Shown: positions 22,429 through 35,781 of the stretch, piece by piece
How positions within the stretch are numbered: position 1 is the stretch's first letter
Layout of the letters: each line of letters starts with the position of its first letter
Source of the DNA: Pseudomonadota bacterium
GTDB taxonomy: Bacteria; Pseudomonadota; Gammaproteobacteria; UBA1113
Direction of reading: 5' to 3'
Assembly: GCA_021778015.1 (NCBI GenBank)
Contig: JAJYCX010000001.1
Location: 138,471 to 202,470 of the forward strand
DNA: 64,000 nucleotides
The notes under the pieces: model-generated
Told to the model about the DNA's origin: nothing
The model's input: the letters and a program-made list of their open reading frames with translations, nothing else
Database searches by the model: none
Translations under genes and position numbers: made by a program

Positions 22429-25400
22429 TTAAATGCTTGGGCCAGAACGCCGCTCCTCTACACTTTCTTCTTCACTCGCTAAGACAGTTTCTTCTTCATC
22501 CACTTCACCAAGAGACGGTAGTTCTTCTATCCGCGGTTCTACAGGTCTAGCATTAAAAGCATGCGGTGATGATGATAACCGATAAGATTGCGGCACTTCA
22601 GAAGATGAGGATTGCGCAGAACTTTTTGCTAAAATATATACTCGCATCTCTTTTAGCCCTTTTTCCGTAGCCAACATCAAAGCTGTGCGCCCATCATTAT
22701 CTGTTTCTGCCAGCGAAACCTGCTCTGGATAGCGTGTTAGTAAATGATCTAGCATCGGTATCTGCCGATTGGCTACCGCTGTCAGTAACACTGTACGCCC
22801 ATCTTTATCTTTGTTAGAAAGTGAAACCTGTTCAGAATAGTTTGATAGCAAATGGTTAACCATATTAATCTGCCCTATTGCTACCGCACAGAATAATGCT
22901 TTTTCAATCAATAGCGCCTGTGCTGGATAGTGGAGCAATAAATAGTCAAATGCCTCAATCTGCCCGTATTTTACTGCAAAAAATAAAGCAGTATTTCCAT
23001 CTTTATCCTCTTCAAAAATGGAAATTTGCTTTGAGTGATTAGATAATAAGTAAGCCATTATTTCTATTTGACCGTTTCTTGCAGCATAACACAAGATTGT
23101 TGTACCAAAAAGATCTTTCTCGGTAAGAGAGACCTGATCAGAATAATGAAGTAATAAGTGATTCATCATTGTTACTTGGCCATTTTCAGCGGCGCAAAGC
23201 AATGCCGTCTTATTCATTCCACTCTTTTGCGTCAACGAAACATGTTCTGAATAATGCTTCAATAGATGGTCAAGCATGTCAATGTTTCCAACTTTTACTG
23301 CACATAGTAGAGCCATATCGTCATCATTGTCTCTCCACTGAGAAACCCGCTCAGGATAATGTGTAAGCAAATGATCCACTATCTCAAATTTCCCGTTCTT
23401 TACCGCCCACAATAAAGGTGTATTTCCATCATTATCTTTCTCACCTAAAGCTAACCTCTGGTAACGTAATATTAAATCTTCACTTTTTTTAGTTGAGCCA
23501 TATTTTACTGCTTGAACAAATGAATGTTGATGGCTAGGCCATGTTTTCTGCGAGTGCAATTCTGGATAACAATGCAACAAAGAGTAAACCTTCTCAATAT
23601 CTCCTTTTCTTATCGCAGAAAGTAAAATAGTCTGAGGATGGCACGATATTAAGTAATCAAGCATCTCAATTTGACCGCTTTTTGTTGCACAAAGTAAAAC
23701 TGTATCCCCATTATTATCTTTTTCGAAAAATGAAACCTGCTCCGGATAGCCTGATAACAACCATTTTGCCATTTCAATATGGCCATTTTTTACTGCCCAC
23801 AACAAAGCCGTATTTCCATCATTATCCTTCTCATTTACAATTTCTTCCGGACAATGCAGTAATAAATGTTCAACCATCTCAGTCTGGCCATTTTTTACTG
23901 CCCACAGCAAAGCCGTATTTCCATCGTTATCTCTATCTGCAAGTGAAACCTGCCCTGGATAAGATAACAATAGATGACGAGCCATCTCAATCTTCTTGTT
24001 TTTTACCGCCCATAGAAAAGCCGTATTCCCATCGTGATCCCTATCCGCAAGTGAGACCTGTCCTGGATAAGATAACAACAGATGATCAACCATCTCAACT
24101 TCATTGAGAAATCCATGGTAGCTTTCTACTGCACAGAGCAGAATCGTTCTGCCGCGATTATCTTTATCGGTAAGCGAGACCTGGTCTCGGTAACGTGATA
24201 ACAAATGATCAACCATTGCAATTCTACCTTTCGCTGCTGCACAAAGCAAAGCTGTCCTTCCATGAGCGTCTTTATCAGTCAATGAAAACTGACTTGAATA
24301 GTGCGATAACAAATGGTCAACTACCTTAATTCCATAATAACCCTCTGCTGCACAGAATAAAGCTGTCTTCCCCTCATTATCTCTATCATCAAGCGAGACT
24401 AGTCCCGGATAGCTCGATAATAAATATTCTATCACTTTAATTCCATCACCGCTTTCAGCTGCACAAAGCAGCACTGTCCTTCCATGATTATTTTTATACG
24501 CTAACGAAAATTGATCACCATAATTCGATAGCAAATGAGAAACCATTTCTACTCTACCGCCACACACGGCCAAAAGCAAAGCTGTATTTCCACTATTATC
24601 TCTATCTGCTAGCGAAACTTGACTGCCGTAATGCGATAACAAATGTTCTAGCATTTTTATATGGCCTAGACGCGCTGCTTGAAGTAAAGCATTGGTTCCA
24701 TATTTATTTCTATCAGCAAGCGAAATTCGGTCGCCATAACGCAATAATAAATGATCAAGCATTTCAACTTCTTTATGGTTTACCGCGGCCAAAATAGGAA
24801 TTAACTTTCCATGACAATCTTTCTGGCCAAAACAAACTTGCTCGGGATAACGCAGAAGCAAATGGTCAACCATCGCGATTTTACCATTACTTATCGCAAA
24901 ACGCATCGGACTTCCTTCAAAAAAACCTTGTTGATCAAGTGAGACATTATCAGGATAGTGTGATAGCAAATGATCAACCATCGCTATTTGTTCTTTCTCT
25001 ATTGCAAAAAATAGAGGCTTTCTACCATAACGATCTTGTTCAAGTGAGACATTATCAGGATAATGTGATAGCAAATGATCAACCATCGCTATTTGCCCTG
25101 ATTTTATTGCCCAGAATAAAGGTGCATTCTTATCGTTACTTTTCGCGGGAAGTGCAATTTGTTCAGGATAATGCCGCAATAGATGGTCAAGGACCTTAAT
25201 TTTACCACTCTTCACTATCTCTAATAACAGAATATTTCTTCCACGTCTATCTTTTTCTGTCAGCGAGAATTGTTTAGGATAAAATTTCAATAAATGATCC
25301 AGCATTGCAATCTGGCCAGATTTTACAGCACACAGTAAAGCTGCATTTCCATTACTATCCTTTTCGGCTAGCGAAACCTGTTGACAATAGTTCAATAACA

Positions 25401-35781: not shown

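Follow-up and report, generated by a model that had tools for sequence, protein, structure and literature searches.

A 4,450-Residue Bacterial Protein Combining Paired Kinase-Like Modules, FBXL-Type Leucine-Rich Repeats and About 79 Ankyrin Repeats

Introduction

A single gene on the chromosome of an uncultured gammaproteobacterium, located in the 64-kb stretch of DNA analysed here (the window), encodes a protein of 4,450 residues in which two modules with a predicted protein-kinase-like fold, a short ankyrin domain, cysteine-containing leucine-rich repeats (LRRs) and a very long ankyrin array are combined. We rate at slightly better than even the chance that this product is a delivered, host-mimicking enzyme and scaffold, whose delivery, catalysis and substrate we infer. 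Since social amoebae carry the same core, the giant protein appears to mimic a host protein and to be made by a protist-associated bacterium.

Gene Integrity and Genomic Setting

A preliminary description of the region had reported 13,353 nt without a stop codon, and the open reading frame was confirmed, on the minus strand, which that description had not stated.

22429..35781, minus strand: whole open reading frame, 4,450 aa plus stop, ATG start
35788..35793, minus strand: Shine-Dalgarno sequence AAGGAG, 7–12 nt ahead of the ATG, identified in the upstream sequence

At this base composition, a stop-free run of 4,450 codons has a chance probability of about 1e-126. The exact protein is present on seven contigs. 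Two other assemblies reproduce the giant reading frame at equal length: an ENA megahit contig carries an identical coding sequence, and that of NCBI assembly GCA_027456045.1 differs at 3 nucleotides and yields an identical protein. Copies of the repeat are only 60–88% identical at the DNA level and collapse or expansion of the array by an assembler is therefore unlikely.

The sources are short-read metagenome assemblies and the content is repetitive, both of which could favour an expanded or chimeric assembly, or eukaryotic contamination of a bacterial bin. We consider such an origin extremely improbable given the agreement in length between independent assemblies (one with 3 nucleotide differences but an unchanged product), the divergence of the repeat copies, the lack of frameshifts in the frame (22429–35781), the bacterial ribosome-binding site and the gammaproteobacterial housekeeping genes on either side. 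An assembly artefact was rejected because independent assemblies agree and the repeat copies have diverged, and the reading frame is confirmed as a real, intact bacterial gene.

Between smpB and queF there is an island of 35 kb that encodes eukaryote-like and coiled-coil giant proteins, and the gene is located within it, next to one encoding a Ras-family domain. Scans for promoters and terminators at the two ends of the gene were uninformative. The flanks on the same contig carry accD-folC-cvpA-purF, smpB, cysS, gltX, lpxH and queF. CysS of the source organism shows 87% identity to its counterparts in the closest gammaproteobacterial metagenome-assembled genomes (MAGs) and only 60% to that of Candidatus Berkiella, and a Legionellales/Berkiella-like placement is thus not established. 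The organism is probably host-associated, a lifestyle which we infer. No second copy of the kinase, LRR or 36-residue ankyrin modules occurs elsewhere in the window.

Kinase-Like Modules

The preliminary description assigned no motif to about the first 1,000 residues and placed a single kinase-like core after them. The kinase-like character received fold-level support from AlphaFold models and Foldseek matches to type II phosphatidylinositol 4-kinases (PI4K II), but there are two paralogous modules, and the supposedly motif-free region holds the first of them together with an ankyrin domain of 3–4 repeats.

35239..35781, minus strand: N-terminal region, aa 1–181, without recognisable domain (no Pfam or NCBIfam match)
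33829..35238, minus strand: kinase-like module A, aa 182–651, alignable to module B as well as to the two modules of the homologues
31849..32766, minus strand: kinase-like module B, aa 1006–1311, from AlphaFold model, Foldseek and profile alignment

A BLASTP comparison with one relative (P0001) gave 38% identity over aa 1–181 and most of module A. Structure prediction, which the preliminary description had suggested for this part of the protein, yielded confident models for module A (pLDDT 84.9, pTM 0.85) and module B (pLDDT 87.2, pTM 0.87), and in the former a helical insert of ~170 aa (about aa 283–453) separates the lobes. Each of the ten best PDB matches of module A is a PI4K II, alpha or beta (E between 6.7e-3 and 0.09, TM 0.23–0.33), and the best Foldseek match of module B is PI4K II alpha (4pla, E=3.3e-5, TM 0.47). 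At E<=1e-3, module B had 166 matches in the PDB, of which those listed were almost all kinases, and in a viral library proteins labelled 'PI3K/PI4K catalytic domain' rank first. The paralogy of the modules is evident from their mutual alignment and from a cross-matching HMM which, although trained on 51 B modules taken from other proteins, matches aa 452–643 of module A (71 bits, E=3.5e-24). On the strength of these models, a bilobal protein-kinase-like fold is confirmed at fold level for both modules, the nearest solved fold being that of a type II PI 4-kinase.

Pfam and NCBIfam scans of aa 1–1600 yielded no model for the kinase-like module and only a sub-threshold ankyrin match, and consequently they could not settle the kinase and LRR claims. 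In the profile searches proposed in the preliminary description, the ankyrin profiles scored far over their cut-offs, and neither Pkinase nor PI3_PI4_kinase matched the giant protein. A Dictyostelium relative (P0053) produced a sub-threshold match to PI3_PI4_kinase (20.5 bits against a cut-off of 27.1, E=4.9e-4). Searches of PDB sequences with the kinase module, as single sequence and as profile, gave marginal DAPK1 matches only. The profile of module B is in register with HFDLKPEN...IDFG of DAPK1, at a marginal E=0.04, and with NTDRGNDN...IDNGLAF of PI4K2A, where hhalign against a verified PI4K2A fragment gave E=0.0019 and a probability of only 14.5%.

Catalytic roles were set by this alignment register with DAPK1 and PI4K2A, not by a solved complex. 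The putative catalytic residues are K207, E229, D474, K476, N479, D501 and D503 in module A, and K1035, E1044, D1124, K1126, N1129, D1150 and D1152, together with a conserved K1168, in module B, such that both keep the Lys / Glu / D-x-K-x-x-N / D-x-D set. In an alignment of 24 sequences, Lys40 and Asp155 are invariant and Glu49, Asp129, Asn134, Asn156 and Asp157 are at least 90% conserved, and the motif pair D.[KR]..N...D.[DE] is retained in 211 of the 272 family modules.

The best structural neighbours of both modules are the type II PI 4-kinases (PI4K2A/PI4K2B; PDB 4pla, 4hnd, 9hhm, 4wtv). As in PI4K2A, the catalytic loop ends in D-N and is followed by h-I-D-N-x-x-A-F (PEDGKGDN...VIDNDHAF here against NTDRGNDN...AIDNGLAF). 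Unlike these enzymes, to which they show no significant sequence similarity and TM values of only 0.23–0.47, the modules carry a Lys at +2 of the catalytic Asp, as do Ser/Thr protein kinases, and occur as a tandem pair set within repeat arrays; any lipid kinase activity is putative. The CCPCC palmitoylation motif of PI4K II is absent, there being no CC dipeptide anywhere in the giant protein. With eukaryotic-type protein kinases (ePKs) such as DAPK1, RIPK2 and PknB, the modules share a bilobal fold with D-x-K-x-x-N and the Mg-binding Asp in register, but their C-lobe is helical and dissimilar and the hallmarks GxGxxG, APE and DxWxxG are found in neither. For lack of these hallmarks and of a Pkinase match, assignment as a canonical ePK was rejected.

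Because the full ATP/Mg-binding and catalytic constellation is kept, modules A and B probably act as phosphotransferases, judging from models and alignments. As to substrate, the fold would favour a phosphoinositide and the D-x-K-x-x-N loop a protein Ser/Thr. A kinase fold can carry out other chemistry, or none. Both modules might then be pseudoenzymes within a giant LRR and ankyrin adaptor that serves as scaffold only, consistent with the missing canonical glycine-rich loop, APE and DxWxxG, with the degenerate modules in the family (61 of 272 without the motif pair, and one sequence in alignment A3 without the D-x-K-x-x-N loop) and with the fact that about 63% of the protein is repeat array. 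This we regard as unlikely, since A and B keep every ATP/Mg-binding and catalytic residue and these are the most conserved columns across the family. Were the modules active, they would represent an unstudied enzyme family of more than 1,500 sequence clusters, common to protists and their intracellular bacteria, and possibly a novel means by which phosphoinositide or phosphoprotein signalling of the host is rewired.

Short Ankyrin Domain and Leucine-Rich Repeats

33136..33558, minus strand: short ankyrin domain separating modules A and B, about aa 742–882, 3–4 repeats, from Pfam and PDB matches
31102..31521, minus strand: cysteine-containing (FBXL-type) LRR domain, aa 1421–1560, from family profile and repeat register

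The inter-kinase ankyrin domain scores 27.1 bits against Pfam Ank_2 (cut-off 27.3) and matches designed ankyrin proteins in the PDB (E=0.007); in relatives P0009, P0062 and P0106 the Pfam cut-offs are exceeded.

Cysteine-containing LRRs of the FBXL type had been recognised in the preliminary description and were substantiated by the family LRR profile which, when searched against PDB sequences, matched FBXL2 (E=5.6e-64), FBXL17 (1e-32) and SKP2 (about 1e-14), and also RAD7, TIR1, KDM2B and FBXL5, whereas the LRR of the giant protein as a single sequence gave only E=0.34. The domain consists of three exact 26-residue repeats of the pattern LxxLxLxxCxxLTDxxLxxL and two degenerate ones, with the cysteines C1450, C1476 and C1502 spaced by exactly 26 residues, and it follows module B in 129 of the best 150 family members.

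These repeats resemble those of the F-box/LRR proteins FBXL2, FBXL17 and SKP2, and ankyrin repeats in the same protein recall bacterial F-box effectors such as Legionella AnkB. Unlike FBXL proteins and AnkB, the giant protein has no F-box: Pfam F-box and F-box-like models were not matched at E<=0.1 in aa 1–1600 or at E<=0.01 in aa 1551–4450, and hence a role as SCF substrate adaptor cannot be assigned to it. Some relatives do carry an F-box (P0062 and P0100). Classification as an F-box protein was rejected since the domain was not found, an absence that the preliminary description had overlooked.

ROCO/LRRK proteins (ANK-LRR-Roc-COR-kinase-WD40), which are abundant in Dictyostelium, likewise combine kinase, ankyrin repeats, LRRs and a C-terminal repeat propeller or array, and the likeness extends to the Ras-family domain, which relative P0004 contains as a fusion and which here is encoded by the gene adjacent to the giant one. 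Unlike them, the giant protein has no Roc-COR tandem, its kinase modules belong to a different, non-ePK family and the domain order is another. No Pfam match to Roc, COR or Ras was obtained in it, and a ROCO assignment was rejected for want of Roc-COR.

The Long Ankyrin Array

22645..31083, minus strand: ankyrin-repeat array, aa 1567–4379, 77 HMM-detected units plus 2–3 degenerate, modal period 36 aa
27316..28827, minus strand: youngest block of the array, aa 2319–2822, fourteen 36-aa units, 72–86% identical, 3-unit super-repeat
26365..27207, minus strand: block of 35-aa units, aa 2859–3139, of the type WAVKNGQ...HYPKEVxGGKD, with TRF periods of 105 and 210 nt

The array gave 1064.7 bits against Pfam Ank_2 over 47 stretches (cut-off 27.3) and lies far over the cut-offs of Ank, Ank_3, Ank_4 and Ank_5. 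Units were counted with an HMM of the protein's own unit, the degenerate ones being located in the gaps, and a total of about 79 is in good agreement with the roughly 80 repeats estimated earlier. So too is the spacing with the estimated period of 35–36 residues, since 36 occurs in 37 and 35 in 10 of the 76 intervals. The canonical period of 33 residues is thus replaced by a modal 36 with a 35-residue sub-block, which represents a length variant and gives no ground for excluding these units from the ankyrin repeats. When we set the units in register with the 33-residue consensus, the additional three residues fall in the loop after helix 2, where xRYPxQVSLxEK replaces KxGADVNAx, and TALL takes the place of the TPLH motif.

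Higher-order duplications, also proposed in the preliminary description, were borne out by TRF, which detected a three-unit period of 324 nt and a two-unit period of 210 nt, and the unusual unit said to recur four repeats further on corresponds to odd units at aa 2066 and aa 2210. In the youngest block the 324-nt period shows 82% matches and the best partners are units offset by three. Framework positions of this block are invariant, with synonymous changes only, and at position 20 of the unit there are 56 synonymous and 0 non-synonymous changes. Variation is located at positions 1, 3, 5, 10, 13, 14, 18, 25, 26 and 29. Among them, positions 3, 5, 13 and 14 are hypervariable in the array, and in designed ankyrin proteins these are target-contact positions. 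The pattern suggests that the array behaves like a binding surface, with a conserved framework and diversified putative contact positions, and as such it may be viewed as an experiment of nature in how binders diversify. Docking surfaces would be provided by the LRR domain together with the roughly 79-repeat solenoid, and they would place the enzyme on host targets or gather several of them.

The giant protein shares with the ankyrin effectors of Legionella, Coxiella, Rickettsiales and Wolbachia both repeats that pass Pfam thresholds and a probable origin in a host-associated bacterium. It differs from them, and from long ankyrin solenoids such as ankyrin (24 repeats) and NOMPC (29), in having about 79 consecutive repeats, the longer period and TALL for TPLH. 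Within the best 150 family members, as few as two units of the 36-residue type are seen in just one further protein. The length of the array is exceptional and, with its period, it widens the known range of ankyrin architecture.

Family Distribution and Architecture

The preliminary description considered the size and domain combination exceptional for a bacterium. This holds for the repeat array but not for the combination, which is that of a recurrent, uncharacterised family with the core [kinase-like A]-[short ANK]-[kinase-like B]-[FBXL-type LRR]. An exhaustive profile search yielded 1,528 cluster representatives of the core family, where a word-indexed homologue search had found two relatives only; the genome scan for members used a 3-sequence alignment of module B. 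The best 150 matches are nearly all 1,000–5,000 aa long, two of them at 4,215 and 5,026 aa. No description of a kinase-ANK-kinase-LRR family was found in the literature, and a comparative paper on Acanthamoeba endosymbionts left ankyrin and Sel1 families out of its transfer analysis (PMC5751055).

Bacterial members occur in Candidatus Paracaedibacter / Odyssella acanthamoebae, in Paracaedibacteraceae and Holosporales MAGs, in Dependentiae and in gammaproteobacterial MAGs. Dependentiae and Holosporales are protist-associated. Within Dictyostelium, D. purpureum contributes three members and D. firmibasis one, one of the four with FNIP repeats, and the presence of the kinase-kinase-LRR core in both species upholds the earlier view of a eukaryote-mimicking protein. 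The kinase-like family also clearly exemplifies the exchange of genes by hosts and their symbionts, and Dictyostelium offers a tractable model for the cellular role of the core.

On this core the C-terminal arrays are interchangeable (ANK, WD40, Sel1, TPR, HEAT, LRR or FNIP), and some members carry extra F-box, patatin or Ras domains. A constant core with highly interchangeable arrays and diversified putative binding positions could also describe an immune or defence sensor comparable to STAND/Avs or NLR-like proteins, with an enzymatic head and a variable repeat sensor that ward off phages or other invaders. We judge this very unlikely. PADLOC gave no defence-system match for the giant protein, no NTPase or oligomerisation module was detected with Pfam or NCBIfam, and the family lacks a broad spread, being restricted to Dictyostelium and host-associated bacteria. 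In the same PADLOC scans, the N-terminal 1,600 aa and five of the six island neighbours scanned had no match, the island's 1,608-aa protein gave a marginal match only (E=6e-4) and the matches of the ankyrin neighbour were restricted to ankyrin-type models.

A more far-reaching proposal, which we advance tentatively and with rather less than even confidence, is that the kinase-like module represents a previously undescribed protein-kinase-like branch related to type II PI 4-kinases, always in tandem with an ankyrin spacer and an FBXL-type LRR, that has been passed between Dictyostelid amoebae and endosymbionts from three or more bacterial lineages. Here it would be joined to an ankyrin solenoid longer than any other natural one noticed to date, whose contact positions diversify like a designed ankyrin library and which would serve a dual phosphotransferase within the host as a docking platform for multiple targets. 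The module merits an entry in profile databases because current annotation leaves such giants as 'hypothetical' or just 'ankyrin repeat protein'.

C-Terminal Tail and Export

22432..22644, minus strand: C-terminal tail, aa 4380–4450, Ser-rich stretch, then Glu-rich end ...EVDEEETVLASEEESVEERRSGPSI

Neither a signal peptide nor a transmembrane segment was found in the giant protein, and no secretion-system family was detected by NCBIfam or PADLOC among the 20 proteins scanned in the 64-kb window. The lack of visible secretion machinery or chaperone in the window would suit a protein that is not exported and acts within or on the bacterium, for example in regulation, at the envelope or in cell-cell contact. 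We find this quite improbable given that there is no signal peptide or membrane segment, that every recognisable domain is a eukaryote-type interaction module, that homologues with the same core occur in Dictyostelium, that those bacterial members which have names are recognised endosymbionts of amoebae, the other taxa (Dependentiae, Holosporales) being protist-associated, and that the F-box of some relatives requires a host SCF ligase.

Under the preferred reading, as a host-mimicking enzyme and scaffold, the giant protein is probably delivered into the protist host cell, where it would imitate the amoebal homologue. Delivery is possibly of type IV, as read from the Glu-rich C-terminus, where ...EVDEEETVLASEEESVEERRSGPSI resembles, judged by eye only, a Dot/Icm-type signal in its Glu-rich block and small polar residues. 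The Ser-rich and then Glu-rich character of the tail, already pointed out in the preliminary description, is reflected in the 15 Ser and 14 Glu of the last 75 residues, and a similar Glu-rich tail is present on the neighbouring 1,411-aa ankyrin protein.

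Gene structure and integrity

The gene encoding the giant protein extends on the minus strand from 35781 down to 22429, with 4,450 codons counted from the ATG start and a single stop at the end, which bears out the single stop-free reading frame of the preliminary description, and AAGGAG is located 7–12 nt 5' of the ATG. At the base composition of the window, the chance of a stop-free run of 4,450 codons is about 1e-126. That such a gene could be an artefact is contradicted by its recurrence. An identical protein occurs on seven contigs, the CDS on an ENA megahit contig is identical, and the copy in GCA_027456045.1 shows three nucleotide differences and encodes an identical product of exactly equal length. 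Moreover, the repeat copies are just 60–88% identical to each other in DNA, a divergence sufficient for the placement of short reads. The product is thus more than a one-off assembly outcome.

Two kinase-like modules

An initial homologue search yielded two relatives, P0001 and P0002, and BLASTP comparison with these revealed two paralogous modules within the N-terminal third of the giant protein. The domains of this region are as follows:

aa 182–651, module A, first kinase-like module, with a helical insert of about 170 residues
about aa 742–882, short ankyrin domain of 3–4 repeats between modules A and B, borderline
aa 1006–1311, module B, second kinase-like module
aa 1421–1560, LRR domain following module B, in a 26-residue register

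Direct profile searches of the translation, as envisaged in the preliminary description, detected the ankyrin repeats and neither a kinase nor an LRR domain; Pfam and NCBIfam scans of aa 1–1600 gave nothing beyond a borderline ankyrin match at aa 766–847. An HMM built from 51 B modules, all from other proteins, matched module B with 277 bits and the C-lobe of module A with 71 bits (E=3.5e-24). Putative catalytic residues are K207, E229, a D-x-K-x-x-N loop (D474–N479) and an I-D-x-D motif (D501/D503) in module A, and K1035, E1044, D1124–N1129 and D1150/D1152, respectively, in module B; these Lys, Glu, D-x-K-x-x-N and I-D-x-D columns are the most conserved in the family alignments.

Structure prediction within the N-terminal part produced confident models with a kinase-like fold. 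For module B, the AlphaFold2 model (24-sequence alignment; pLDDT 87.2, pTM 0.87) matched PI4K II alpha best in the PDB using Foldseek (4pla, E=3.3e-5, TM 0.47), with PI4K II beta near, and among the matches listed, from a total of 166 at E<=1e-3, nearly all were kinases. Independently, the ten best PDB matches to the module A model (pLDDT 84.9) were all PI4K II alpha or beta, with marginal E-values of 6.7e-3 to 0.09. In a viral structure library, phage proteins labelled 'PI3K/PI4K catalytic domain' ranked first, followed by giant-virus Ser/Thr kinases. At the sequence level, the family profile placed PEDGKPDN...IDND in register with HFDLKPEN...IDFG of DAPK1 (weak, E=0.04) and hhalign placed NTDRGNDN...IDNGLAF of PI4K2A in register (weak, E=0.0019, probability 14.5%), using a PI4K2A fragment checked beforehand against the PDB sequence. 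Motif searches of the giant protein detected neither the ePK hallmarks GxGxxG, APE and DxWxxG nor the CCPCC motif of PI4KII. Given these weak in-register alignments and the missing motifs, the modules are best regarded, on the predicted structures, as divergent members of the protein-kinase-like superfamily, nearest in fold and motif layout to the type II PI 4-kinases and carrying a catalytic loop like that of Ser/Thr protein kinases.

LRR domain and ankyrin array

The inter-module ankyrin domain is evident at the equivalent place in relatives. In the LRR domain, Cys1450, Cys1476 and Cys1502 follow one another at intervals of exactly 26 residues, with two degenerate LRRs after them. By itself this segment matched FBXL2 only at E=0.34, whereas the homologous segments of 20 family members formed a profile that matched FBXL2 at E=5.6e-64 and FBXL17 at 1e-32, and also RAD7, TIR1, KDM2B, FBXL5 and SKP2. 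The earlier assignment to FBXL/AMN1-type LRRs was therefore right as to repeat type, and the likeness to FBXL-type proteins extends to repeat type only; no F-box was detectable in the giant protein by Pfam scans.

Over aa 1551–4450, Ank_2 scored 1064.7 bits across 47 stretches, and an HMM of the protein's own unit identified 77 ankyrin units (aa 1567–4379), with two or three degenerate units filling the remaining gaps, so that the earlier estimate of about 80 repeats stands. The ankyrin consensus has a period of 33 residues. Here the modal spacing is 36 (37 of 76 intervals), with one sub-block at 35, in agreement with the period first reported. Registered against the 33-residue consensus, the extra residues fall in the loop after helix 2, with xRYPxQVSLxEK replacing KxGADVNAx, and TALL stands where the consensus has TPLH. 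Higher-order duplication was also substantiated: TRF found periods of 324 nt (3 units) and 210 nt (2 units), units within aa 2319–2822 are 72–86% identical with the best partner three units off, and the aberrant '...GWTVM' and '...GWIVIV' units are separated by four units.

In the young block aa 2319–2822, framework positions show no amino-acid change despite many synonymous differences (at position 20, 56 synonymous and 0 non-synonymous pair differences), and positions 1, 3, 5, 10, 13, 14, 18, 25, 26 and 29 are hypervariable. Designed ankyrin binders are randomised at, among others, positions 3, 5, 13 and 14. To judge from this pattern, the array looks less like an inert spacer than like a series of distinct putative binding surfaces. 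Its length and 36-residue period are unusual; among the best 150 family members, P0004 alone has even two units of the 36-residue type. The protein terminates, as described earlier, in a Ser-rich and then a Glu-rich stretch, ...EVDEEETVLASEEESVEERRSGPSI.

Family architecture and distribution

When 1.84 billion cluster representatives were searched exhaustively by profile, 1,528 proteins matched with E<=1e-3, of which 499 reached E<=1e-30. The best 150 of the 1,528 are nearly all 1,000–5,000 aa in length, and in most of them the module is present at least twice. Their recurrent core consists of module A, ankyrin, module B and LRR, the LRR following module B in 129 of these 150, while the C-terminal part is exchanged freely between members, and some carry additional domains:

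P0001, WD40
P0005 and P0009, Sel1
P0006, 4,215 aa, ankyrin, with the entire core twice in one polypeptide
P0008, LRR_6
P0021, TPR
P0082, FNIP repeats
P0114, 5,026 aa, longer than the giant protein, HEAT, labelled HEAT repeat protein
P0004, additional N-terminal Ras domain
P0023, additional patatin
P0062 and P0100, additional true F-boxes

The sizes of P0006 and P0114 indicate that giant size is a family trait, and the domain combination, earlier considered exceptional for a bacterium, proves to be that of a large though unannotated family. In all members tested, the kinase-like module lacked a Pfam or NCBIfam model, the sole trace being a sub-threshold PI3_PI4_kinase match in P0053. No description of the family was found in the searchable literature, an absence that does not prove novelty.

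Eukaryotic members occur in Dictyostelium purpureum (XP_003289458.1, XP_003283212.1 and XP_003282868.1) and D. firmibasis (KAK5584595.1), and bacterial members include WP_038465051.1 of Candidatus Odyssella / Paracaedibacter acanthamoebae and MAG proteins. When one genome of each prokaryotic species was scanned, 33 module B loci were detected, in gammaproteobacterial MAGs, a Dependentiae MAG, Paracaedibacteraceae and Holosporales MAGs and Candidatus Paracaedibacter symbiosus. Social amoebae and protist-dwelling bacteria therefore share the family. One complete 2.45-Mb gammaproteobacterial MAG chromosome, OZ220716.1, carries at least eight separate module B loci (including L004–L008, L010 and L012; 32–41% identity), a large paralogous expansion in a small genome. 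Separately, the 29.7-kb Dependentiae MAG contig of locus L001 (PRDV01000027.1) carries three module-B-encoding loci, L013, L020 and L022; adjacent called genes there encode 1,942, 1,902 and 1,737 aa, with a patatin/LRR protein beside them.

Genomic setting and possible function

The giant gene lies in a region of eukaryote-like or unmatched giant proteins:

20274–55366, island of about 35 kb between smpB and queF
20274–21857, plus strand, Ras-family protein of 527 aa, C-terminal Ras domain (Pfam E=2.3e-19)
35890–40125, plus strand, ankyrin protein of 1,411 aa with canonical 33-residue repeats, divergent to the giant gene
40920–45746, minus strand, coiled-coil giant of 1,608 aa, no Pfam match
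46755–53516, minus strand, coiled-coil giant of 2,253 aa, no Pfam match

Several other island proteins lack any match. The flanks carry gammaproteobacterial housekeeping genes (accD-folC-cvpA-purF, cysS, gltX, lpxH, pyrD and fadJ), and GC content is 0.35–0.39 over 36–54 kb against 0.41–0.47 in these flanks. The region looks like an effector island. CysS, 87% identical to that of gammaproteobacterial MAGs and 60% to that of Candidatus Berkiella, places the organism among the former.

The Ras-family neighbour has a degenerate P-loop, GDPGVGTS, which lacks the canonical Lys. Its Ras domain is 31% identical (E=1e-20) to that fused N-terminally to the double-kinase core in P0004, hinting at a possible Rosetta-stone functional link between the adjacent genes. 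The ankyrin neighbour starts at TTG 35767 in a mechanical ORF listing, overlapping the giant start, and at ATG 35890 in gene calls on other contigs. The HMM of the giant's 36-residue unit did not match it; its C-terminus is likewise Ser-rich and then Glu-rich, repeating the Glu-rich end of the giant protein, which by eye resembles type IVB signals.

We consider it somewhat more probable than improbable that the giant protein is a delivered protein that imitates the amoebal homologue inside a protist host cell, the two modules acting as phosphotransferases while the LRR domain and ankyrin solenoid would dock on targets, or gather several together. Delivery is suggested by the eukaryote-type domains, the family distribution, the Glu-rich C-terminus and the absence of Sec and membrane signals; neither a signal peptide nor a convincing membrane segment was found in the protein. 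No secretion-system genes were identified within the 64-kb window. The fold would favour a phosphoinositide or other lipid substrate and the D-x-K-x-x-N loop a protein substrate. Less probably, the protein could be a catalytically dead scaffold, have an intrabacterial role, or act as a defence sensor, the last receiving no support from PADLOC. Ankyrin effectors of intracellular bacteria are among its closest known families; ROCO/LRRK proteins, also among them, resemble it in design logic only. Tests of membership supported the kinase-like fold, the ankyrin repeats and the LRRs of cysteine type, and assignment to the PI3_PI4_kinase, Pkinase, F-box or ROCO families failed.

Other genes in the window

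A motif of about 51 aa, YRFxxL...VYIG...YPCK(I/V)xD...LF(Y/H)I, recurs in the 1,608-aa protein (45504–45656, 45261–45413 and 43713–43868); by eye, two more diverged copies follow there and the 2,253-aa protein begins with a similar stretch. A tandem pair of LdtE-like L,D-transpeptidase paralogues with an 8-nt overlap lies at 57877–60271 (minus strand). A module for exopolysaccharide synthesis and export is suggested at 1168–5337 (minus strand) by genes for a PgaC-like glycosyltransferase and for a YaiO-type outer-membrane beta-barrel protein with TPR.
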